From: Escherichia coli
Lineage (GTDB): Bacteria > Pseudomonadota > Gammaproteobacteria > Enterobacterales > Enterobacteriaceae
Reading direction: 5' to 3' (one strand)
Assembly (NCBI RefSeq): GCF_044647545.1
Contig: NZ_CP172818.1
Length of the DNA: 64,000 nt
The notes under the pieces are model-generated. The model was not told the DNA's origin. It was given only the letters and a program-made list of their open reading frames with translations, and did no database searches. Both the position numbers and the translations under genes were made by a program. Each line of letters opens with the position of its first letter. Position 1 is the stretch's first letter. Below are positions 2,955 to 61,580 of this stretch, piece after piece.

Positions 2955-3716
2955 GTGATGTTGTCTGCTACTCAACCACTTAGCGAAAAATTGCCAGCGC
3001 ATGGCTGTCGTCATGTTGCGATCATTATGGACGGCAATGGTCGCTGGGCAAAAAAGCAAGGGAAGATTCGTGCCTTTGGGCATAAAGCCGGGGCAAAATC
3101 CGTCCGCCGGGCTGTCTCTTTTGCGGCCAACAACGGTATTGAGGCGTTAACTCTGTATGCCTTTAGTAGTGAAAACTGGAACCGACCAGCGCAGGAAGTC
3201 AGTGCGTTAATGGAACTGTTTGTGTGGGCGCTTGATAGCGAAGTAAAGAGTCTGCACCGACATAACGTGCGTCTGCGTATTATTGGCGATACCAGTCGCT
3301 TTAACTCGCGTTTGCAAGAACGTATTCGTAAATCTGAAGCGCTAACAGCCGGGAATACCGGTCTGACGCTGAATATTGCGGCGAACTACGGTGGACGTTG
3401 GGATATAGTCCAGGGAGTCAGGCAACTGGCTGAAAAGGTGCAGCAAGGAAACCTGCAACCAGATCAGATAGATGAAGAGATGCTAAACCAGCATGTCTGT
3501 ATGCATGAACTGGCCCCTGTAGATTTAGTAATTAGGACTGGGGGAGAGCATCGCATTAGTAACTTTTTGCTTTGGCAAATTGCCTATGCCGAACTTTACT
3601 TTACAGATGTTCTCTGGCCCGATTTCGATGAACAAGACTTTGAAGGGGCGTTAAATGCCTTTGCTAATCGAGAGCGTCGTTTCGGCGGCACCGAGCCCGG
3701 TGATGAAACAGCCTGA
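2955..3716 (+). CDS. ispU: undecaprenyl diphosphate synthase (GTG start)
   Basis: 253-aa ORF; HVAIIMDGNGRWA cis-prenyltransferase motif. Confidence 0.95.
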   Translation: MMLSATQPLSEKLPAHGCRHVAIIMDGNGRWAKKQGKIRAFGHKAGAKSVRRAVSFAANNGIEALTLYAFSSENWNRPAQEVSALMELFVWALDSEVKSLHRHNVRLRIIGDTSRFNSRLQERIRKSEALTAGNTGLTLNIAANYGGRWDIVQGVRQLAEKVQQGNLQPDQIDEEMLNQHVCMHELAPVDLVIRTGGEHRISNFLLWQIAYAELYFTDVLWPDFDEQDFEGALNAFANRERRFGGTEPGDETA

Positions 3717-36940: not shown

Positions 36941-37017
36941 GGAGCGGTAGTTCAGTCGGTTAGAATACCTGCCTGTCACGCAGGGGGTCGCGGGTTCGAG
37001 TCCCGTCCGTTCCGCCA
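36941..37017 (+). tRNA. aspU: tRNA-Asp (GTC)
   Basis: GGAGCGGTAGTTCAGTCGGTTAGAATACC...TCCGCCA, 77 nt, distal to 5S. Confidence 0.95.
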
Positions 37018-39938: not shown

Positions 39939-40610
39939 ATGTCAGGTCTGCCACAGGGCAGACCAACGTTTGGCCCCCTTTAAAAAAAAAAAGACACCAA
40001 TACAACACAACAAAAAAAAAGCGCTGCGCAAAACGTGAGCGCGGTGGTGGCGTATGACTTATCTGCCCAAATGCTGGATGTCGTGGCACAAGCTGCCGAA
40101 GCCGGGCACCTGAAAAATATCGCCACCCGCCAGGGATATGCCGAAAGTCTGCCATTTGCCGATAACGCATTTGATATTGTTATCAGCCGTTATTCTGCCC
40201 ATCACTGGCATGATGTTGGTGCAGCACTGCGAGAAGTGAATAGGATATTGAAACCTGGCGGTAGGCTGATTGTGATGGACGTAATGTCTCCGGGTCACCC
40301 AGTGCGCGACGTCTGGTTACAGACGGTAGAAGCATTACGCGATACCTCTCACGTACGAAACTACGCCAGCGGTGAGTGGTTGACGTTAATCAATGAAGCC
40401 AATCTGATAGTTGATAATTTAATTACAGATAAGTTACCGCTGGAATTTTCTTCATGGGTCGCGAGAATGCGTACGCCAGAAGCGTTAGTAGACGCTATTC
40501 GCATTTACCAACAGAGCGCATCGACAGAGGTGAGAACGTATTTTGCCTTGCAGAATGACGGCTCTTTCACCAGTGATATCATCATGGTAGAAGCACATAA
40601 AGCGGCATAA
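39939..40610 (+). pseudogene. yafE: truncated/interrupted SAM-dependent methyltransferase
   Basis: ATG at 39939 is in frame with the methyltransferase body (GTG 40035 to stop 40610) but separated by a 48-nt A-rich tract with in-frame TAA (39981-39983); body lacks Gly-rich motif I. Confidence 0.7.
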
Positions 40611-40657
40611 ATAAAAAAGGCACCGGGGGAATCGGTGCCTTTTGATTATCTGATTTG

Positions 40658-42016
40658 TCAGGAATCTGGCATGTTGTTGTTTTTCACAAACAACGTCAGC
40701 TTATCGCCTGGTTGCAGATTCGCAGTGTCGCTGTTCCAGCGCATCACATCTTTGATGTTCACGCCGTGGCGTTTAGCAATGCTTGAAAGCGAATCGCCTT
40801 TGCGCACACGATACGTAATGCTATCGCTGTTGTTTGCCAGTCGCTGTGCGCTACTGCCTGCGCCAATCGTCAAACTTTGGCCTGGCTTCAGCTTAGATCC
40901 GCGCAGTTTGTTCCACTGCTGCAAATCTTTGGTGCTTACGCCGAGACGTGAAGCGATACTTGAAAGCGTGTCGCCAGAGCGTACGGTGTAAACACGGCTG
41001 TTAAGCGGCGTATTGTCGGCAACCAGCGTCGACTGTACAGCAGCAATTTCGCCTGAAGCCAGAGATTCACGCAGTTGATCTGCATGCTTCTTTGGCACCA
41101 TCACGTACTGCGGACCACTTGCGCCCAGCGTGGAGCCTTTCACGCCTGCGTTGAATGTCTTCAGCTTGCTGACGGAAATCCCCGCCATATCTGCAACCTT
41201 CGCCATTTCAACCGGGCTGCTCAGGTGCACACGCGCCAGAGCACGGCTTTCATCGGTCGTTGGCAGACGTACGCCATAACGCTTGCTGTTTTTGAGAATA
41301 TCACTCAATGCCAGCATTTTAGGCACGTACTGCTTCGTTTCCTGCGGCAACGGTAACGACCAGAAGTCCGTGGATTTCCCACGCGCTTTGTTCGTTTTAA
41401 TTGCCTTCATGACCCGACCTTCGCCGCTGTTATAAGCCGCTACGGTCAGAAGCCAGTCGCCGTCAAACATCTTGTTCAGACGCTGCATCATGTTCAGCGC
41501 GGCAGTTGTTGAAGCAACAACATCGCGACGCGCGTCATAATTGCGGGTCTGTTTCAAACCATAATTGCGCCCCGTGCTCGGAATGATCTGCCAGATGCCC
41601 GCGGCATTGGCGCCAGACGTTGCGTGAGGATCAAAAGCGCTCTCCACTATGGGTAGTAGTACCAGTTCCATAGGCATGTTACGTTTTTTAACTTGCCCGG
41701 CTATCCAGTACATATACGGCTCTGCCCGTAAAGTTACATCGTGGAGATAGCTCTTATTGCGTAAATATTTCTGTTTCTGTTCGCGAATCCGGTCGTTTTC
41801 CGGAATTCCCATCTTTAGCTCGTCGCCAATGAAAGCCCACAAGTCACCATCTGGCGCGATAGACGTCCCATCGTCCATCCATCGTGCCTGACTTGTAAAC
41901 TTTGCTGCTTCCCCTTGACCAGCTGCAGAAAGGCTCTGTGCGTGCTGTTGAACGTTGCCGGTGCTCTGGCAACCCACGAGCAGGACAGAGGCGAGTAATA
42001 TCGCTTTTGCCTTCAT
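40658..42016 (-). CDS. mltD: membrane-bound lytic murein transglycosylase D
   Basis: 452-aa ORF; lipobox LVGC; C-terminal LysM repeats. Confidence 0.93.
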   Translation of the reverse strand: MKAKAILLASVLLVGCQSTGNVQQHAQSLSAAGQGEAAKFTSQARWMDDGTSIAPDGDLWAFIGDELKMGIPENDRIREQKQKYLRNKSYLHDVTLRAEPYMYWIAGQVKKRNMPMELVLLPIVESAFDPHATSGANAAGIWQIIPSTGRNYGLKQTRNYDARRDVVASTTAALNMMQRLNKMFDGDWLLTVAAYNSGEGRVMKAIKTNKARGKSTDFWSLPLPQETKQYVPKMLALSDILKNSKRYGVRLPTTDESRALARVHLSSPVEMAKVADMAGISVSKLKTFNAGVKGSTLGASGPQYVMVPKKHADQLRESLASGEIAAVQSTLVADNTPLNSRVYTVRSGDTLSSIASRLGVSTKDLQQWNKLRGSKLKPGQSLTIGAGSSAQRLANNSDSITYRVRKGDSLSSIAKRHGVNIKDVMRWNSDTANLQPGDKLTLFVKNNNMPDS

Positions 42017-42087
42017 GTGTGTGTCAATAGTTGCTTAAAAGACGACCGATCATAACGGCGAACGGAGCCGATGACAAGAAAGTTTTA

Positions 42088-42846
<759 letters not shown>

Positions 42847-42876
42847 TTACCTCTCAGTGTGAAACGGAAGGTTGTG

Positions 42877-43599
42877 ATGAAACCGGCAAGAGTCCCTCAA
42901 ACTGTCGTGGCTCCTGATTGCTGGGGCGATTTGCCCTGGGGAGAGCTTTATCGCAAGGCGCTGGAGCGCCAGCTCAACCCGTGGTTCACTAAAATGTATG
43001 GTTTTCATCTGCTTAAGATTGGCAATTTAAGCGCAGAAATCAATTGCGAAGCGTGCGCGGTTTCTCATCAAGTGAATGTTTCTGCGCAAGGACTGCCCGT
43101 CCAGGTGCAGGCGGACCCACTTCATCTTCCTTTTGCCGATAAATCCGTTGATGTTTGTCTACTGGCACATACATTGCCGTGGTGCACCGATCCGCATCGT
43201 TTATTGCGTGAAGCCGATCGGGTACTGATTGATGATGGCTGGCTGGTGATTAGTGGCTTCAATCCCATAAGTTTAATGGGATTACGCAAACTTGTACCGG
43301 TATTGCGCAAAACCTCGCCCTATAACAGCCGGATGTTTACTCTGATGCGGCAGCTGGACTGGCTCTCTTTGTTGAATTTTGAAGTGCTACACGCCAGCCG
43401 TTTCCACGTTCTCCCGTGGAACAAACACGGTGGAAAACTATTGAATGCGCATATTCCTGCGCTTGGTTGCTTACAACTTATTGTCGCCCGGAAACGGACT
43501 ATTCCTTTAACGCTAAATCCGATGAAACAGAGTAAAAACAAGCCACGAATTCGCCAGGCGGTTGGAGCCACCCGGCAATGTCGTAAACCACAGGCTTAA
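42877..43599 (+). CDS. yafS: putative SAM-dependent methyltransferase
   Basis: 240 aa from [22 protein letters not shown]; track ORF starts 6 codons upstream. Confidence 0.85.
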
Positions 43600-44063
43600 A
43601 CTTCGACTTGATAGCCCGTATCTTCCAGTGTGGGATTCATCGCTGCGGCACGAGCCAGTTCATCGCAACGTTCGTTTTCTGGATGACCGGCATGGCCTTT
43701 AACCCATTCCCATTTGATTTGATGCTGCCCCAGCGCAGCATCAAGACGTTGCCAGAGATCGACATTTTTTACTGGTTTTTTGTCTGCTGTTTTCCAGCCA
43801 CGTTTTTTCCAGTTATGGATCCACTGGGTGATACCCTGGCGGACATACTGGCTGTCGGTACTCAAAATGACTTCGCAATGTTCTTTTAACGCCTCCAGCG
43901 CGACAATAGCGGCCATCAACTCCATACGGTTGTTGGTGGTGCGGGTGTAGCCTGCGCTAAAGGTTTTCTCGCGTCCGCGATAGCGTAAAATAGCGCCGTA
44001 ACCCCCAGGTCCAGGATTACCCAGACACGAACCATCGGTGAAAATTTCTACCTGTTTAAGCAT
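43596..44063 (-). CDS. rnhA: ribonuclease HI
   Basis: 155 aa from [23 protein letters not shown]; track ORF extends 24 codons upstream. Confidence 0.95.
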
Positions 44064-44127
44064 CTCTGGTAGACTTCCTGTAATTGAATCGAACTGTAAA
44101 ACGACAAGTCTGACATAAATGACCGCT

Positions 44128-44859
44128 ATGAGCACTGCAATTACACGCCAGATCGTTCTCGATACCGAAACTACCGGTATGAACCAGATTGGTGCGCACT
44201 ATGAAGGCCACAAGATCATTGAGATTGGTGCCGTTGAAGTGGTGAACCGTCGCCTGACGGGCAATAACTTCCATGTTTATCTCAAACCCGATCGGCTGGT
44301 GGATCCGGAAGCCTTTGGCGTACATGGTATTGCCGATGAATTTTTGCTCGATAAGCCCACGTTTGCAGAGGTAGCCGATGAGTTCATGGACTATATCCGC
44401 GGCGCGGAGCTGGTGATCCATAACGCAGCGTTCGATATCGGCTTTATGGACTACGAGTTTTCGTTGCTTAAGCGCGATATTCCGAAGACCAATACCTTCT
44501 GTAAGGTCACCGATAGCCTTGCGGTGGCGAGGAAAATGTTTCCCGGTAAGCGCAACAGCCTCGATGCGTTATGTGCCCGCTACGAAATAGATAACAGTAA
44601 ACGAACGTTGCACGGGGCATTACTCGATGCCCAGATCCTTGCGGAAGTTTATCTGGCGATGACTGGTGGTCAAACGTCGATGGCTTTTGCGATGGAAGGA
44701 GAGACACAACAGCAACAAGGTGAAACAACAATTCAGCGCATTGTGCGTCAGGCAAGCAAGTTACGCGTTGTTTTTGCGACAGATGAAGAGCTTGCGGCAC
44801 ATGAAGCCCGTCTCGATCTGGTGCAGAAAAAGGGCGGAAGCTGCCTCTGGCGGGCATAA
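44128..44859 (+). CDS. dnaQ: DNA polymerase III epsilon subunit (3'-5' proofreading exonuclease)
   Basis: 243 aa from [17 protein letters not shown] (Exo I motif); divergent from rnhA. Confidence 0.95.
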
Positions 44860-44991
44860 ATACCTGTAAAAGGCGCTAAAATTAGCGACTTGGGCGATTT
44901 TTGCAGCAAACGATTCAAAAGATGAGAAAAACCGTTGACGAAGGGTGAGGCAATCCGTAATATTCGCCTCGTTCCCAACGGAACACAACGC

Positions 44992-45068
44992 GGAGCGGTA
45001 GTTCAGTCGGTTAGAATACCTGCCTGTCACGCAGGGGGTCGCGGGTTCGAGTCCCGTCCGTTCCGCCA
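44992..45068 (+). tRNA. aspV: tRNA-Asp (GTC)
   Basis: Identical in sequence to the aspU copy at 36941-37017. Confidence 0.95.
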
Positions 45069-45097
45069 AATTCACTCATGAAAATGAGTTCAGAGAA

Positions 45098-45127
45098 CCG
45101 CAAGATTTTTAATTTTGCGGTTTTTTG
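45098..45127 (+). terminator. putative terminator after aspV
   Basis: CCGCAA ... TTGCGG hairpin followed by T6. Confidence 0.5.
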
Positions 45128-45393
45128 TATTTGAATCCCGCCATTTCTCTGTTCAATGATTTTACTCTAGCGTAAGTGCGTGATTCTCGCTTGTTGTCTC
45201 ATTCATTAAAATTCAATAATGATATCGAGCCATTCAGCTTAAATATATTTTCAGAGAATAATTTTATATTGATTAAGTGAATGTATATTTCAAATTGATT
45301 TTATTTGTTATTATTTAAGTGGGGTATATAATTAGAGTTCGTTATCAGTGCTAAATATTCTAATCATTATGACAGGCGAGGGAGTGTCCGATT

Positions 45394-46179
45394 ATGAATT
45401 CAAAAAAGGTTTGTTGCATATGTGTGTTATTCTCGCTGCTTGCAGGATGTGCCTCTGAATCTTCTATTGATGAAAAGAAGAAAAAAGCTCAAGTCACACA
45501 AAGTAATATTAATAAAAATACCCCCCTGCAACTGACAGACAAAGATTTATTCGGTAATGAAACCACTCTGGCCGTATCCGAGGAGGATATTCAAGCTGCG
45601 CTTGATGGAAATGAGTTCCGCGTTCCCCTTAATTCTCCTGTAATACTTGTTCAATCCGGCAACCGCGCACCGGAAACCATTATGCAGGAGGAGATGCGAA
45701 AATATTATACTGTTTCCACATTCTCTGGTATCCCGGACAGGCAAAAGCCTCTGACTTGTAACAAAAACAAAGATAAAAATGAGAACGAGGATGTTGCCAG
45801 TGCTGAAAATATGAACTGGATGCAGGCATTGCGTTTTGTGGCTGCGAAAGGGCATCAGAAAGCGATTATTGTTTACCATGATACGTTGCAGACAGGAAAA
45901 TATGACACTGCACTGAAATCAACAGTATGGTCCGATTATAAAAATGAAAAAATTACTAACACAATCTCACTGCGCTATCTGGTGCGATTCACGCTGGTGG
46001 ATGTAACTACAGGTGAGTGGGCTGCCTGGTCGCCGGTGAATTATGAATATAAAGTGCTTCCACCATTGCCCGGCAAGAATGAAGCCAGTACGACTGATAT
46101 GACAGAGCAGCAAATCATGCAACTTAAGCAAAAGACCTATAAAGCGATGGTAAAAGATTTGGTTAACCGCTATCAATAA
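45394..46179 (+). CDS. yafT: putative lipoprotein
   Basis: 261-aa ORF; signal peptide plus lipobox LAGC; AT-rich codon usage. Confidence 0.85.
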
Positions 46180-46328
46180 TAAATTATATCTGCCGCCAGG
46201 AATTTCTGGCGGCAATAATACAGAATTCTTTGCATAAGAAATTTTTTCCTGACAAAGACTGTGCAAAAAAGGACATGGAATCCGGAGTTAAAAACTGTTT
46301 GTTTTAGAATATTTAATTATTTAACTGC

Positions 46329-46796
46329 TTAATCTTCCTTGCGAGAAATATATTCATTATTACATTTCATGCCATTTTTAATATAGGTTGCTCCTGGGAA
46401 AATCCCCGTGTTATTACCGCAGGGGTGATAATTATCATTAACATATCCTGTGACAAAAGGAGCTATTAAAGGTGCTATTACGATAGCTATTAGTAAAAAT
46501 ATAAGAGTTAGCTGTATTGTTATGTCTGTGGCGAAATTGATTACCTTTGTTTTTTTTATTAAGAATGATTTTATTATCGTTAGTAAAATTACATGAATAT
46601 TTAACAAGGAAAACGATATGAAACCGAAGCATAGAATCAACATTCTCCAATCATAAAATATTTCCGTGGAGCCTTTTATTATTGAATATAGAGGTTTAAT
46701 TCCGGTAAAAAACAAAGATGCATTGAATGCAGGGAAAAATAATATGGCTATAAAAAACATCGAAAGAAACTCTTTCAATTTAACATGTAAACGCAT
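46329..46796 (-). CDS. ykfM: putative inner membrane protein
   Basis: 155-aa hydrophobic, AT-rich ORF; start may lie a few codons upstream. Confidence 0.65.
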   Translation of the reverse strand: MRLHVKLKEFLSMFFIAILFFPAFNASLFFTGIKPLYSIIKGSTEIFYDWRMLILCFGFISFSLLNIHVILLTIIKSFLIKKTKVINFATDITIQLTLIFLLIAIVIAPLIAPFVTGYVNDNYHPCGNNTGIFPGATYIKNGMKCNNEYISRKED

Positions 46797-46810
46797 AGTT
46801 AATCCTCATA

Positions 46811-47098
46811 TCACAGGGGGGTGTTAAGAACATACATAAATGGAGTCATGTTTTCCCTTTTCCATTTATCAAGTTCCTGTTGCCGTTTTAGTCCATCTCT
46901 AATTGCATCTTTTAATTTTTCTGATAAATGGTATTGAACATCGATTTCATTTAAAACAACTGTACACACTATCCCCGTAAGTAAAATTGCTCCTCCTACA
47001 AGAATTACTGGAAGGCCAAAACTAAGACAGGCAAAAGAAGCCAGGCTTCCAATAGCGGTTGCAACACCGCCTGCAATCACTGCTTTGGCCACATCCAT
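46811..47098 (-). CDS. yafU: putative small membrane protein
   Basis: 95-aa ORF with a hydrophobic helix; start uncertain. Confidence 0.6.
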   Translation of the reverse strand: MDVAKAVIAGGVATAIGSLASFACLSFGLPVILVGGAILLTGIVCTVVLNEIDVQYHLSEKLKDAIRDGLKRQQELDKWKRENMTPFMYVLNTPL

Positions 47099-47162
47099 TG
47101 AAAAATCACCAAGAAAATTAACCAGATCTCGCTCTGAACTCGTAATAAATTCTATGGTTCTG

Positions 47163-47439
47163 CTGATTTAACCGCAGAAAAGTTCGCCACAGCAATCCGA
47201 AACCACTGGCACGTGGAGAATAAGCTGCACTGGCGTCTGGACGTGGTAATGAATGAAGACGACTGCAAAATCAGCGAAAGAGGAAACGCCGCAGAATTAT
47301 TTTCAGGATACGGCGCATCGCTATTAATATTTTGACGAATGATAAGGTATTTAAGGCAGGGTTAAGACGTAAGATGCGAAAAGCAGCTATGGACAGAAAC
47401 TATCTGGCGTCAGTCCTTGCGGGGAGCGGGCTTTCGTAG
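47163..47439 (+). mobile_element. yafF: H-repeat (ISAs1-family) transposase C-terminal fragment, frameshifted
   Basis: Translation ...[40 protein letters not shown]... then, after a frame change, ...[36 protein letters not shown]. Confidence 0.75.
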
Positions 47440-47477
47440 TCTTCCCCGACTCTCCCCGGCCTTAAATACAACACCAC

Positions 47478-48248
47478 TCACCACAACCTAAACTCATCCG
47501 CATCCCGCCATGCCGGAAACTTTTCTCTATATTCCCGCAATGCCACCATCGACAGCTCCGCATCAATGCGCGTTGCCTGATGCGCGTCGGCAGTAGCGAT
47601 AATCTCGCCCTGTGGATTAATCACCCTGCTGTCACCACGATAATGGCAGCCGTTGCCATCGCTGCCGACGCGATTGCATCCCGCCACATACGCCTGATTC
47701 TCAATCGCGCGGGCTGTCAGCAATGCCTGCCAGTGCAGAGAGCGCGGAGCAGGCCAGTTGGCGACGTACAGGGCGAGGTCATAATCGTTGAGATTGCGCG
47801 ACCACACAGGAAAACGTAAGTCGTAGCACACCAGCGGCAAAATACGCCAGCCGCGCCATTCCACAATCACTCGCGCATTGCCCGCTTTATAATGCAGATG
47901 CTCATCTGCCATGCGGAACAGATGACGCTTATCATAAAAATGTACCGTGCCGCCCGGCTCAACCAGCAAAAAGCGGTTAACCGAACCAGACTCCGTTTGT
48001 AATGCAACACTGCCTGCAATCAGCGCATTGCACTGCTGCGCCTTAGCTGTCATCCAGTTCACTACGTCATTTTGTGCTAGCGACGAAGCTGCCGCTTCCA
48101 TGGCAAAGCCGCTGGTAAACATCTCCGGTAGAACGATCACATCGCGCCCGGTAATACCTTCCAGTTGACGATCAAAATGGCGCAGGTTGGCAGGGCCATC
48201 CATCCACACCAGTGGTTGCTGCAAAAGCGTAATCTTCAAACCAGGCAC
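47478..48248 (-). CDS. yafV: omega-amidase / nitrilase-family hydrolase (GTG start)
   Basis: 256 aa (M)PGLKITLLQQPLVWMDGPANL; CN-hydrolase fold. Confidence 0.88.
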   Translation of the reverse strand: MPGLKITLLQQPLVWMDGPANLRHFDRQLEGITGRDVIVLPEMFTSGFAMEAAASSLAQNDVVNWMTAKAQQCNALIAGSVALQTESGSVNRFLLVEPGGTVHFYDKRHLFRMADEHLHYKAGNARVIVEWRGWRILPLVCYDLRFPVWSRNLNDYDLALYVANWPAPRSLHWQALLTARAIENQAYVAGCNRVGSDGNGCHYRGDSRVINPQGEIIATADAHQATRIDAELSMVALREYREKFPAWRDADEFRLW

Positions 48249-55425: not shown

Positions 55426-57182
55426 GCAGGGATCTCCCCCACAACACTCAACGCCCCCATAATCTTCAACTCCAGCTCGTCCGGCACTTCGTTATACGAC
55501 AGCACATGCAGCCCCGGCGCAAACAATCTCGCATAGCGCGCCAGCAAAGGGCGCAACTGCGGTGGCACCAGCAGCACAGGGTCTTTCCCCGCCGCTTTCA
55601 TCTGCTCCTTCACCTGCGGCATCGTACTCTGGAACTGGTTGAGCATATTCGGGTCTACCGGCACGCTGTCGAGCATCACTTTGCCGGCCTGTTGCGCCTG
55701 ATTCACCACGTTGGTCAGCAGATTTTCCAGCTCATTATTCAGCGTATACACCGTCAGCTCCTGCTTGCGAACGAACGGATGGGTAATGCTGCGCCGCAGC
55801 GCCAGGCGCACATCTGCCGCCAGCAGAATATGATCTTTGGTCACCGCACTACTGGCGACCAGCACGGTGGCGATGGTGACGATATCGCGCAGGGAAACGC
55901 CTTCAGTCAGCAGCGCCCGGTACACTTTCAGCAACTGGCTGTAATTCAGCGCCGCGCTCAAATCCTCCGCCAGTCGCGGTGCCATCGACGACAGGCGGTT
56001 ATGCAACTGCGTAATATCGTCATAGTTAAATAAATCAGGAATATAGCTGCGCACAATCTTATTCACATGCGTGGCAATTACGCTGGCGCTGTCGATCACC
56101 TGATACCCCATATTCAGCGCCTTCGCTTTCTGCGCAGGCTGAATCCAGGTGACCGGCATCCCATATGCCGGGTCATTCCCCAGTACGCCGTCAATCTCGC
56201 CGTAGGTTTCGCTGGAGGGCAGGGCCATCAGTTTATCCGCCGGAATATCCGCTTCATCAGCCTTAATGCCGTTGATGAAAATGGCGTACTGGCTGGGCTT
56301 GAGACGGAAGTTTTCCCGAATACGGATCTCCGGCAGCAGCACGCCGTTACCGTCGGATATCACCTGCCGCACGCCGCGAATCCGCTGGGTGAGCGGGTTC
56401 CCCTGCGCTTTGTCCACCAGCGCCACCAGCTTGTAGCCGAGGCTTAAGCTGATGGGCTCGATCAGCGGAATGGTTTCCCAACTGACCTGTTGCTCGCTGG
56501 TTTCGGTGATGGTTCGGGTCAGCGTTTCGAGGCTTTTCTCCTCCGCCTCCGCCGCCTGCGGGCGTTTGCTCATCCGCCAGCCGGTAAAGCCAAGCAGGGC
56601 GCTGAACAGCAAAAATGGCAGATGCGGCATCCCCGGCACCACCGCCAGCACAAACATGATCCCGGTGGCGGTGTAGAGCACCGACGGACTTGCCAGCAGC
56701 TGGTGGCGCACGTCATGGGCGATATCGCCGTTGTCGCTGACGCGGGTGACGATAATTGCCGCCGCGGTGGAGAGCAGCAGGGACGGGATCTGCGCCACCA
56801 GCCCGTCGCCGATAGTCATCAGCACATATTGCTGGAAGGCGGCGTCGGCGCTCAGGTTGTATTTGAAGATCCCGATACAGACGCCGCCGATCAGGTTGAT
56901 CGCCAGAATCATCATCCCGGCGATGGCATCGCCGCGCACAAACTTCGATGCCCCGTCCATTGCGCCGTAGAAATCGGCCTCGCTGGCAACATCTTTACGC
57001 CGGGTTTGTGCCTGCGCCTGGTTGATCAATCCGGCGTTAAGATCGGCGTCAATCGCCATCTGTTTACCGGGCATCGCGTCCAGGGTAAAGCGGGCAGAAA
57101 CCTCGGAAATACGCTCGGCCCCTTTGGTGACGACGATAAAGTTGATTGTCAACAGCGTCAGTAAATCCGAGCGTGAAAGCAT
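55377..57182 (-). pseudogene. lfhA: FlhA-like flagellar export protein remnant (Flag-2 cluster), 5'-truncated
   Basis: About 600-aa ORF with FlhA-family similarity (…FVRGDAIAG…, C-terminal cytoplasmic domain) lacking the N-terminal TM region and a credible start. Confidence 0.8.
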
Positions 57183-60424: not shown

Positions 60425-60691
60425 ATGGAATGGTACATGGGCAAATATATTCGTCCCTTATCCGATGCGGTATTTACCATCGCATCTGATGACCTGTGGA
60501 TCGAGAGTTTAGCGATCCAACAATTACACACCACGGCAAATTTACCCAACATGCAACGCGTAGTAGGGATGCCAGATTTACATCCCGGACGCGGCTATCC
60601 GATTGGCGCAGCGTTCTTCTCCGTAGGCCGTTTTTACCCGGCAAGACGTCGCGGTAACGGTGCTGGAAACAGAAACGGGTCGCTACTCTGA
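60425..60691 (+). pseudogene. ykfJ: RtcB-like RNA ligase N-terminal fragment
   Basis: 88-aa ORF with RtcB-type motif GMPDLHPGRGYPIGAAF, then terminates; overlaps prfH. Confidence 0.7.
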
Positions 60692-61160: not shown

Positions 61161-61580
61161 TTGAAGAATGAAACTCCCGCCGTTTTCTATATGAAAGCGC
61201 GCGCAAAACGAAAGAATCTCATTTTATCTCTCTTCCCTTTTTTTGATAAATCTTTCTTGTAGAACTTCTGTTGCTTCATCGCGCCGGTTTTTGGCTTAGT
61301 TTGGCCATTCGCCCGTTTTTGATCTTTTTGGCGTCGGGTGGTAACGCCAAACTCACTTTTTCCTCTTAGGCATAATATGGTTTGTCCGCCGGGGGGCTAG
61401 TTTTGGGCGGAAAAGAGAAAAACCCTTTCCAAATTGTTTTTCGACTGCGATCTGGGTCTTTCGGTAACACTTTCCTACATAGGTATTTTTTTTTTATTTT
61501 TAAAAAAAAAAAAAATCAAAAAAAGATAGCCATTGGCTTCAAACAGAAGTCCACGCCCGCAGGCGTGGACATTATCGTAA

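Follow-up and report, generated by a model that had tools for sequence, protein, structure and literature searches.

In a stretch of 64,000 nucleotides of Escherichia coli DNA (hereafter the window), a short AT-rich islet lies directly downstream of the tRNA gene aspV, which raises the question of what this islet is and where it came from. An earlier note, made from the letters of the window, had read it as a decayed horizontally acquired island, recognizable by its tRNA gene, its composition and a transposase remnant. The four gene identifications on which that reading was built (yafT, ykfM, yafU and an H-repeat/ISAs1 fragment) were all correct, each lying where it had been placed or close by (Table 1). 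The proposed switch to AT-rich sequence after aspV was also borne out. Immediately past the tRNA gene the GC fraction drops to 0.30-0.43, and the islet as a whole (45069-47477) has a GC content of 37.7%, compared with a whole-window mean of 50.9% (standard deviation 3.2%, 2.4-kb windows), making it the lowest of all 2.4-kb stretches of the window.

Table 1. Features of the aspV-yafV interval, in window coordinates.
Feature	Position	Strand	Description
aspV	44992..45068	+	tRNA-Asp(GTC), called by ARAGORN; fixed left anchor of the variable segment
AT-rich spacer	45069..45393	+	30.5% GC
Hairpin and T-run 3′ of aspV	~45096-45126		island-specific; read by eye
Promoter-like site	45305-45332		5′ of yafT
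yafT	45394..46179	+	261-aa lipoprotein; ORF with lipobox LLAGC; Pfam PF25851 (precomputed tables)
GC-rich hairpin	46190..46215		terminator-like, between the convergent yafT and ykfM
ykfM	46329..46796	-	155-aa multi-pass membrane protein
yafU remnant	46811..47161	-	final 116 codons and stop of a predicted Tme-family T6SS effector gene (302/304 aa)
Deletion junction	47157..47161		5-bp microhomology GTTCT, common to the effector gene and ISEc1
yafF	47157..~47447	+	3′ ~290 nt of an ISAs1-family element (ISEc1/H-repeat) with the IS end; frameshifted
yafV	47478..48248	-	2-oxoglutaramate amidase; right anchor; its final three codons belong to the variable segment

Comparison of the window with an empty-site genome placed the variable segment at ~45070-47489. 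Empty-site and island-bearing genomes first diverge one base past the CCA end of aspV, with the empty-site allele carrying a different terminator hairpin 3′ of the tRNA gene, while the right edge falls at the very end of yafV, where the window encodes ...EFRLW* and the empty site ...EFTFR*. Among 5,426 complete E. coli genomes, on which all population counts are based, 757 (14%) have the empty site (aspV, 98 bp, yafV) and 2,944 carry yafT, ykfM and the 3′ part of yafU. In this comparison with other genomes, which had been suggested as a check, the segment is accessory DNA.

The origin of the islet became apparent from strain NB4833, in which a ~32.6-kb subtype-i1 T6SS cluster occupies the interval between aspV and yafV. 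Its gene order is aspV, yafT, ykfM, a gene for a 304-aa protein, hcp, vasL, tssM, tssA, vasI, clpV, tssL, tssK, tssJ, tagH, tssG, tssF, tssE, tssC, tssB, hcp, vgrG, rhs, an rhs immunity gene, ISEc1 and yafV. Missing from the K-12-type allele are 30,164 bp of this arrangement; the deletion begins at codon ~187 of the 304-aa gene and ends at ISEc1 transposase codon ~286. Both ends of the cluster are collinear with the islet, which matches NB4833 from the left up to 47161 and on the right from 47157. Unlike the cluster, it lacks VgrG, Rhs and every T6SS core gene, as well as three quarters of ISEc1; no T6SS core gene (tssA-M, hcp, vgrG) was found between aspV and yafV in the window, so that the locus is a remnant and not a system. 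In the intact island the core has a GC content of 52-64% and only the cargo ends are AT-rich. It is these AT-rich cargo ends that survive in the remnant.

These observations make it very probable, in our view, that the islet represents the K-12-type allele at the aspV-yafV hotspot, consisting of the two ends of a ~32.6-kb subtype-i1 T6SS island with the interior deleted, and that the copy in the window was most probably imposed by a K-12 assembly template. The idea of a decayed acquired island thus holds insofar as the islet is an accessory remnant of something far larger; it fails insofar as the classic form of tRNA, integrase and att site was meant, as no integrase is annotated and no direct repeat of the aspV 3′ end was found.

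The islet might instead be ordinary, vertically inherited core DNA whose low GC content reflects its membrane and lipoprotein coding content. Such an origin would fit the pS values of yafT and ykfM relative to K-12 (0.09-0.11), which equal those of the flanking dnaQ and rnhA, and the fact that the same locus is occupied in Salmonella. However, the segment is missing, with a clean alternative spacer in its place, from the 14% of genomes with an empty site, and the cargo differs between strains: an O157-like strain has alternative cargo between yafT and hcp, and a B2 strain has none there. Moreover, two of the four features are truncated genes, and in relatives the parts they lack are separated by 30 kb. 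This explanation, to which we give almost no credence, is already refuted by the empty-site and intact-island genomes.

The islet also corresponds to a well-known locus, yafT-ykfM-yafU-yafF of K-12, and its biology is ordinary and largely known. In K-12 MG1655 (yafT b0217, ykfM b4586, yafU b0218 and yafF b4503, the last two pseudogenes) the genes, their order, their strands and the junction are the same as in the window, with 95.6% identity over the islet and 97.4% over 12 kb. Relative to MG1655, ykfM of the window is shorter by 4 codons, the yafU stump stops 2 codons sooner, and yafF contains a frameshift together with a 3-nt insertion. The K-12 junction is present in 370 of the 5,426 genomes; being shared by K-12 and these genomes, it is real in nature. 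The deletion would have arisen by illegitimate, slippage-type recombination rather than by transposition. Adjacent deletion mediated by the IS was ruled out, as the IS is truncated internally and no deletion end lies at an IS terminus.

The larger island has been described before. The E. coli aspV subtype-i1 T6SS has been named "T6SS/1" of ECC-1470, or the E. coli T6SS-2 phylogenetic cluster (PMC5422975), and a 37-kb aspV island is present in EHEC EDL933 (PMC5363993). The assignment of yafT to a T6SS cluster and the presence of an adjacent rhs element are likewise already in the literature. In Salmonella enterica, the T6SS island at the SPI-6 locus is associated with aspV (PMC2907695), and a Salmonella contig had the same order and chromosomal position: dnaQ, YafT, DUF1240, a 307-aa effector homologue, Hcp, VasL and TssM. 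In contrast to the islet, the cluster on this contig is intact, and it contains extra DUF1240 and small ORFs.

We also considered site-specific entry of an integrase-mediated island at the 3′ end of aspV followed by decay, with the ISAs1 fragment as a relic of mobility. The tRNA-adjoining position, the atypical composition and the presence or absence of the segment among genomes would all be expected of such an island. However, the direct repeat of the aspV 3′ end that had been proposed as a boundary marker was found neither in the islet (25-mer with ≤3 mismatches, 15-mer with ≤2) nor in the intact 32.6-kb island of NB4833. In the window the only matches to this end were aspV itself and the identical aspU (36941-37017), and other short repeats look like chance. 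No integrase is present among the islet ORFs or annotated across the intact island, and the yafT-T6SS module occupies another chromosomal site in Lelliottia. Furthermore, the right end of the island lacks the 98-bp spacer of the empty site, which makes the two alleles look like a replacement and not an insertion. The IS, finally, is part of the T6SS cluster, at its Rhs end. Entry through an integrase is therefore quite improbable, and the deleted T6SS island remains the preferred reading.

As had been noted from the sequence, a frameshifted ISAs1-family transposase fragment is indeed present, with two ORFs (47213-47335 and 47332-47439). It runs from transposase codon ~286 to a stop at 47437-47439, and differs from all other examined copies by a 1-nt deletion and a 3-nt insertion that split it. 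What is left of the element is the last ~93 codons of the 378-aa transposase and the 3′ end, with the frame broken; a complete ISAs1 element is absent. The fragment is 94-97% identical to ISAs1 copies, the matching records being annotated as "ISAs1 family transposase", and its best identity to any copy in the 5,426 genomes is 97.4%. Judged by its place in the intact cluster, the remnant is not the mobility gene of the island but the ISEc1/H-repeat found after the T6SS-linked Rhs effector.

At the other side of the junction lies the yafU stump, whose longest ORF (46811-47098) encodes 95 aa and which shares 100% identity with the corresponding 3′ end of the intact L013 gene. When this exact 95-aa ORF was looked up, it was recovered only in effector genes that were frameshifted or disrupted by IS1 and lay within islands, and the junction of the window was absent. 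Searches of Pfam, NCBIfam and PDB sequences with the 304-aa protein yielded no usable match. A published study lists a Tme domain at residues 122-277 of the full-length homologue of yafU, WP_000908057.1 (PMC7046647), with Hcp upstream and YkfM 9 bp downstream (PMC7046647 Supplementary Data 5). The same list includes the Tme-positive i1-T6SS E. coli strains E24377A, 55989 and SE11. Linkage to Hcp is a recurrent feature of the effector gene: Hcp lies immediately upstream in both E. coli and Salmonella, and next to the gene in Rahnella. In the window this linkage has been lost. The effector-DUF1240 module lies beside Hcp at the same locus in Salmonella, and in Rahnella it is found as an orphan module. 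These arrangements suggest that the 304-aa product would be a Tme-family membrane-disrupting effector, predicted to be loaded via the adjacent Hcp.

The Tme1/Tmi1 and Tme2/Tmi2 pairs of Vibrio parahaemolyticus are membrane-disrupting T6SS effectors with DUF1240-like immunity proteins (PMC7046647), and the homologue of yafU resembles these effectors in its DxxK motif, transmembrane helix and flanking D. In both the stump and the full-length protein, DVAK is followed by a hydrophobic stretch (the transmembrane helix) and NEID, so that all three elements are retained. The stump has lost the N-terminal 186-187 residues, including residues 122-187 of the Tme domain. In contrast to the Vibrio pairs, the effector in the window is truncated inside its Tme domain and only the immunity gene is intact; yafU would thus be a C-terminal stump that is not deliverable.

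The gene ykfM lies 9-14 bp downstream of the Tme gene, and its product has three transmembrane helices by Phobius (PMC7046647 Supplementary Data 5). YkfM is 51% identical to the same-position Salmonella protein, which carries PF06836. A direct hmmscan of YkfM against the Pfam DUF1240 HMM produced no match, and the 51%-identical Salmonella protein scores just 11 bits; NCBIfam and PDB sequence searches with YkfM likewise gave no usable match. However, hhalign of YkfM against DUF1240 proteins (one above the PF06836 gathering score and three just below it) returned a probability of 98.7% with E=3e-16 over 141 columns that contain the YHxC...G.F.G..YVK..C motif. YkfM is accordingly predicted to be the cognate inner-membrane Tmi (DUF1240-like) immunity protein. 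It would now be orphaned and, if active at all, could provide orphan immunity against E. coli armed with Tme.

Immunity genes retained without an effector have been reviewed for E. coli (PMC6730261), and ykfM resembles them in remaining while the effector is disabled. It differs from the usual case in that the entire secretion apparatus, and not the effector alone, is gone from this locus. In E. fergusonii, small ORFs resembling immunity genes come after yafT, and the ~7 kb of flanking sequence examined contained no T6SS genes. One explanation for the retention of ykfM would be that the matching Tme effector is encoded within the aspV T6SS of about half of all E. coli genomes. However, K-12 YkfM and the K-12 yafU stump are identical at the protein level to alleles of T6SS-positive strains, so that the deletion is recent and retention need not mean selection. 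We also considered pN/pS (0.16-0.31) as a sign of selection after T6SS loss and found it uninformative, because the SNPs of the window come from a T6SS-positive clone and the K-12 alleles are identical to T6SS-positive ones. It is conceivable, and somewhat less than an even prospect, that ykfM is a working orphan immunity gene kept by T6SS-less K-12-type E. coli as a shield against former kin, with yafT kept beside it as an uncharacterised outer-membrane accessory of the subtype-i1 T6SS or as a second protective factor. The sole published phenotype of ykfM is that of a Tn5 mutant killed more readily by nalidixic acid, mitomycin C and peroxide (PMC2824699); it bears no relation to T6SS.

The remaining gene, yafT, adjoins Hcp-VasL-TssM in E. 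coli, Salmonella, Hafnia and Lelliottia, and its product is 64-76% identical across enterobacterial genera (yafT pN/pS 0.16-0.21). Judged by this recurrent position, yafT is the conserved terminal gene of T6SS clusters of the subtype-i1 kind, and it would encode a conserved accessory lipoprotein of the system. Pfam, NCBIfam and PDB sequence searches with YafT gave no usable match, and they do not support its RefSeq label "aminopeptidase". An AlphaFold model of YafT (mean pLDDT 63) was matched by Foldseek to FlgT, GNA1162, LptE, PelC and CsgG lipoproteins (E 1e-4 to 1e-2, TM-scores 0.2-0.6), which hints at an outer-membrane lipoprotein fold and carries no functional assignment. In K-12 the yafT locus lies within a transcriptionally silent protein-occupancy domain (PMC4191405), and the AT-rich remnant may be nucleoid-silenced there.

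Finally, we asked whether the sampled strain itself has the deletion. Up to 47161 and again from 47421, the window matches T6SS-positive genomes at 99.9-100% identity, and its flanks carry the SNPs of the T6SS-positive strain 500010 (NZ_CM129041.1) on K-12 architecture. Wherever strain 500010 has additional DNA (39975-40020, 55427-55445, 60642 and 61165-61524), the window contains junk or K-12 junctions, among them a 739-nt segment that is progressively thinned and the exact ykfJ/rtcB junction of K-12. Ns and K-12-like coordinates are also found in CP092815.1, a sister consensus record. From these signs the window is very probably a K-12-templated consensus of a T6SS-positive strain, with the architecture at 47157-47420 probably inherited from the template, so that the sampled strain may not have the deletion.

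A true deletion could have come about by recurrence at GTTCT on a 500010-like background, or as an old allele whose flanks were overwritten by T6SS-positive donors. The window has no Ns and the junction reads through cleanly, and branch migration stalling at the heterology might convert flanks up to the junction. However, the junction occurs on this background in 0 of the 5,426 complete genomes (best match 96.5%), the close relatives examined are all T6SS-positive, and the changes in the IS fragment are found in no real ISAs1 copy. Because decimated sequence and K-12 junctions also appear at the four other sites where relatives have extra DNA, independent recurrence and recombination up to the heterology boundary were set aside; a genuine deletion in this strain is unlikely. 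Under the templated reading, any feature of this record that depends on K-12-specific architecture should be distrusted, including the islet junction, the ykfJ/prfH region, 39975-40020, 55427-55445 and 61165-61524.

For the biology of K-12, the comparison provides testable identities for four poorly characterised loci: yafU as a Tme stump, ykfM as a Tmi-type immunity gene, yafF as the H-repeat tail of a lost T6SS-linked Rhs and yafT as a terminal T6SS gene. It also predicts that K-12, the standard prey strain of T6SS work, carries one piece of T6SS defence, which could bias competition assays with Tme-positive E. coli attackers.

A GC profile of the window fell to 0.30-0.43 directly after the tRNA-Asp(GTC) gene aspV (44992-45068, ARAGORN) and returned to at least 0.50 at ~47200-47400. 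The AT-rich switch described in the earlier note was borne out: the islet at 45069-47477 contained 37.7% GC, against a window mean of 50.9% (sd 3.2%, segments of equal size), the lowest value among all 2.4-kb segments of the 64-kb window. Its gene content was also as claimed, comprising yafT, ykfM, yafU and a frameshifted C-terminal fragment of an ISAs1 transposase (yafF), and the gene order in the window (rrnH, aspU, dkgB, yafC, yafD, mltD, gloB, yafS, rnhA, dnaQ, aspV, islet, yafV, ivy, fadE) is the E. coli neighbourhood. An identical 77-nt copy of the tRNA gene, aspU (36941-37017), lies 8 kb from aspV in direct orientation, 3' of the rRNA operon; variable DNA adjoins aspV only. A perfect 12-nt inverted repeat (46190-46215, TGCCGCCAGGAA/TTTCTGGCGGCA), probably a bidirectional terminator, separates the convergent yafT and ykfM.

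Coordinates of islet genes and of anomalous stretches in the window
Feature	Position	Strand	Description	Counterpart
yafT	45394-46179	+	261 aa, lipobox LLAGC	
ykfM	46329-46796	-	155 aa	
yafU remnant	46811-47161	-	in-frame reading throughout; 95-aa ORF starts at 47098	
yafF, frameshifted ISAs1 transposase C-terminus	47213-47335 and 47332-47439	+	two short ORFs	
low-complexity insert	39975-40020		46 nt, CCCCCTTTAAAAAAAAAAAGACACCAATACAACACAACAAAAAAAAA, at K-12 yafD/yafE junction	strain 500010: 170 nt (yafE 5' region)
garbled stretch	55427-55445		10-20 nt	strain 500010: 87 nt; K-12: 892-nt rayT (REP-associated transposase) region
K-12 exact ykfJ/rtcB deletion junction	60642 (within 60610-60670)		GTTTTTACCCGGCA joined to AGACGTCGCGG	strain 500010: 1,019 nt more, intact RtcB gene
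decimated copy	61165-61524		425 matches, 8 mismatches, 472 dropped bases	strain 500010: 739-nt segment

When window 44900-47600 was searched by megablast in a set of 5,426 complete E. coli genomes, several alleles of the aspV-yafV locus emerged. In strain NB4833 the interval spans ~32.6 kb and holds an intact island in the order yafT, ykfM, a 304-aa hypothetical gene, hcp, vasL, tssM, tssA, vasI, clpV, tssL, tssK, tssJ, tagH, tssG, tssF, tssE, tssC, tssB, another hcp, vgrG, a gene for an Rhs core protein, one small ORF, a complete ISEc1 (ISAs1 family) and yafV. The window is collinear with this island from aspV up to 47161, within the 304-aa gene, and the match resumes at 47157, within the ISEc1 transposase; the two matches overlap by GTTCT (5-bp microhomology), and the allele is a 30,164-bp deletion relative to NB4833. 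Sequence is missing from the interior of both truncated genes, and neither breakpoint falls at an IS terminus; we infer that the deletion arose by illegitimate recombination rather than by transposition. Exactly the same junction is present in K-12 MG1655. The genome comparison suggested in the earlier note showed that the islet varies in presence: 370 of the 5,426 genomes carry the K-12-type junction and 757 have an empty site (aspV, 98 bp, then yafV); yafT and ykfM together with the 3' portion of the 304-aa gene occur in 2,944. In strain 500010, the closest complete relative of the window, the right end of the T6SS island (L014 13029-16926) has, in place of VgrG, Rhs and ISEc1, fragments of IS256 and IS3 plus a group II intron (ltrA); here the locus has decayed by a different route.

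The islet had been read as a decayed, tRNA-linked island of the classic kind. That it is the remnant of a larger island, intact in NB4833, stood; integration at the tRNA gene did not, as no integrase is annotated in the intact island and a search for a direct repeat of the aspV 3' end found none in either the islet or the intact island. The empty-site spacer is unrelated to either end of the island, and the YafV C-terminus reads ...DEFRLW in island-bearing alleles versus ...DEFTFR at the empty site (window 47478-47490 versus 3268-3280 of the empty-site genome L001), the alleles differing even in the final three codons of yafV. This difference places the boundary of the variable segment inside the yafV 3' end. 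The pattern resembles the replacement of one allele by another at a recombination hotspot, not an insertion at an att site. As a whole the intact island is not AT-rich: its core is 52-64% GC, and low GC is confined to its two ends, yafT-ykfM-effector (36-40% GC) and Rhs tip/immunity (35%). The AT-richness of the islet is the signature of surviving cargo ends.

Against every K-12-type genome, the islet in this particular record shows only 95.6-96.1% identity. Window 40022-47161 is 100% identical to genomes with an intact effector gene and T6SS (L013, L011 and strain 500010), and from 47421 onward the window is again 99.9% identical to strain 500010; identity stops exactly where the T6SS-positive relatives cease to be collinear with K-12. 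No ISAs1 copy in the 5,426 genomes exceeds 97.4% identity with the intervening 260 bp, the ISAs1 fragment, and these contain an insertion, a deletion and substitutions absent from every copy examined. A comparison of the entire window to both K-12 and strain 500010 revealed no K-12-only insertions in the window, and wherever strain 500010 has extra DNA the window has nothing or thinned-out sequence. The yafD/yafE insert aligns to the yafE 5' region of strain 500010 only as a copy with many dropped bases, and looks like a consensus artefact, and the decimated segment is reduced to ~290 nt, becoming progressively thinner towards the middle. A public 'complete' record, CP092815.1 (4.67 Mb, L024 231213-247983), has K-12-like coordinates, many Ns and the same structure as the window; outside the Ns it shows strain-500010-like SNPs on a K-12 architecture and a K-12-like yafF fragment, and it is probably a sister reference-guided consensus. 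It is likely, judging from these alignments, that the window is a consensus in which reads of a strain-500010-like, T6SS-positive strain were placed on a K-12 template. If so, the template would be the source of its junction and odd IS fragment, and the island is probably present in the real strain. The record as such calls for caution. For the 370 genuine genomes the account of the K-12-type islet holds.

At the left end, yafT belongs to PF25851 in precomputed tables, is 64-76% identical across enterobacterial genera and adjoins Hcp-VasL-TssM in Salmonella, Hafnia and Lelliottia, the Lelliottia cluster lying at another chromosomal site. Its AlphaFold model (pLDDT 63, modest confidence) weakly matches outer-membrane lipoproteins of the FlgT, LptE, PelC and CsgG kind, and in K-12 the locus lies within a transcriptionally silent protein-occupancy domain (PMC4191405). 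In E. fergusonii (L038 7001-10990) several small immunity-like ORFs come after yafT, among them CDI_Immunity_Comp and NGO_1070-like proteins, and the ~7 kb examined contains no T6SS genes; the arrangement may be an independent second remnant of yafT plus orphan immunity genes. At the right end, the transposase remnant is indeed a frameshifted ISAs1 fragment: yafF comprises the final ~93 codons and the 3' end of the ISEc1 located after the T6SS-linked Rhs.

Between yafT and hcp, K-12-like strains have a Tme/Tmi pair, an O157-like strain (L009 10776-12125) encodes a DUF1311 protein and a 198-aa protein alongside a frameshifted ORF, and in a B2 strain (L010 10283-10623) hcp directly adjoins yafT. 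Cargo that differs or is absent among strains marks this gap as a variable slot for Hcp-linked cargo. The 304-aa protein had no Pfam, NCBIfam or PDB sequence match and few relatives, in E. coli, Salmonella (62% identity) and Rahnella (39%). The Salmonella homologue is flanked by Hcp and a DUF1240 protein within a T6SS cluster adjoining YafT and dnaQ, and the Rahnella homologue forms an orphan effector-DUF1240 module next to an hcp gene. Fridman et al. [quoted passage not shown] In their Supplementary Data 5 the NB4833 protein (WP_000908057.1) is entered with a Tme domain spanning residues 122-277, with Hcp encoded upstream and, 9 bp downstream, WP_001236649.1 or WP_001236645.1 (YkfM); the latter is the K-12 YkfM sequence, and YkfM entries have three predicted transmembrane helices. 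This listing, together with a DVAK...NEID motif in both the full-length protein and the yafU stump of the window, identifies yafU as the last 116 codons of a predicted Tme effector (residues 187-302 of a 302-aa allele, 188-304 of the 304-aa protein), lacking the N-terminal region as well as the initial third of the predicted toxin domain.

YkfM shares 51% identity (E=1e-48) with the protein at the equivalent position in Salmonella. Compared directly with the Pfam DUF1240 model it fell below detection; a YkfM-family profile matched a profile of PF06836-matching proteins with 98.7% probability (E=3e-16), the latter built from four proteins, one above the Pfam gathering score and three just below. 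Homology and gene position together make a well-supported prediction that ykfM is an orphaned Tmi-type immunity gene.

The T6SS at aspV in E. coli is well documented (PMC5363993, PMC2808357, PMC5422975), and reviews describe K-12 as lacking a T6SS (PMC6730261). A ykfM::Tn5 mutant dies more readily under some stresses (PMC2824699). We found no literature naming yafU, ykfM and yafF as T6SS remnants; all elements for doing so are already published, and little here is new. Overall, the observation was confirmed and its interpretation, partly supported, is sharpened: by sequence comparison the locus is the interval between aspV and yafV known from K-12, and represents both ends of a subtype-i1 T6SS island whose interior was deleted, together with a predicted orphaned Tmi-type immunity gene. 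It may also be that ykfM, and perhaps yafT, still protects T6SS-less E. coli from Tme-armed relatives.
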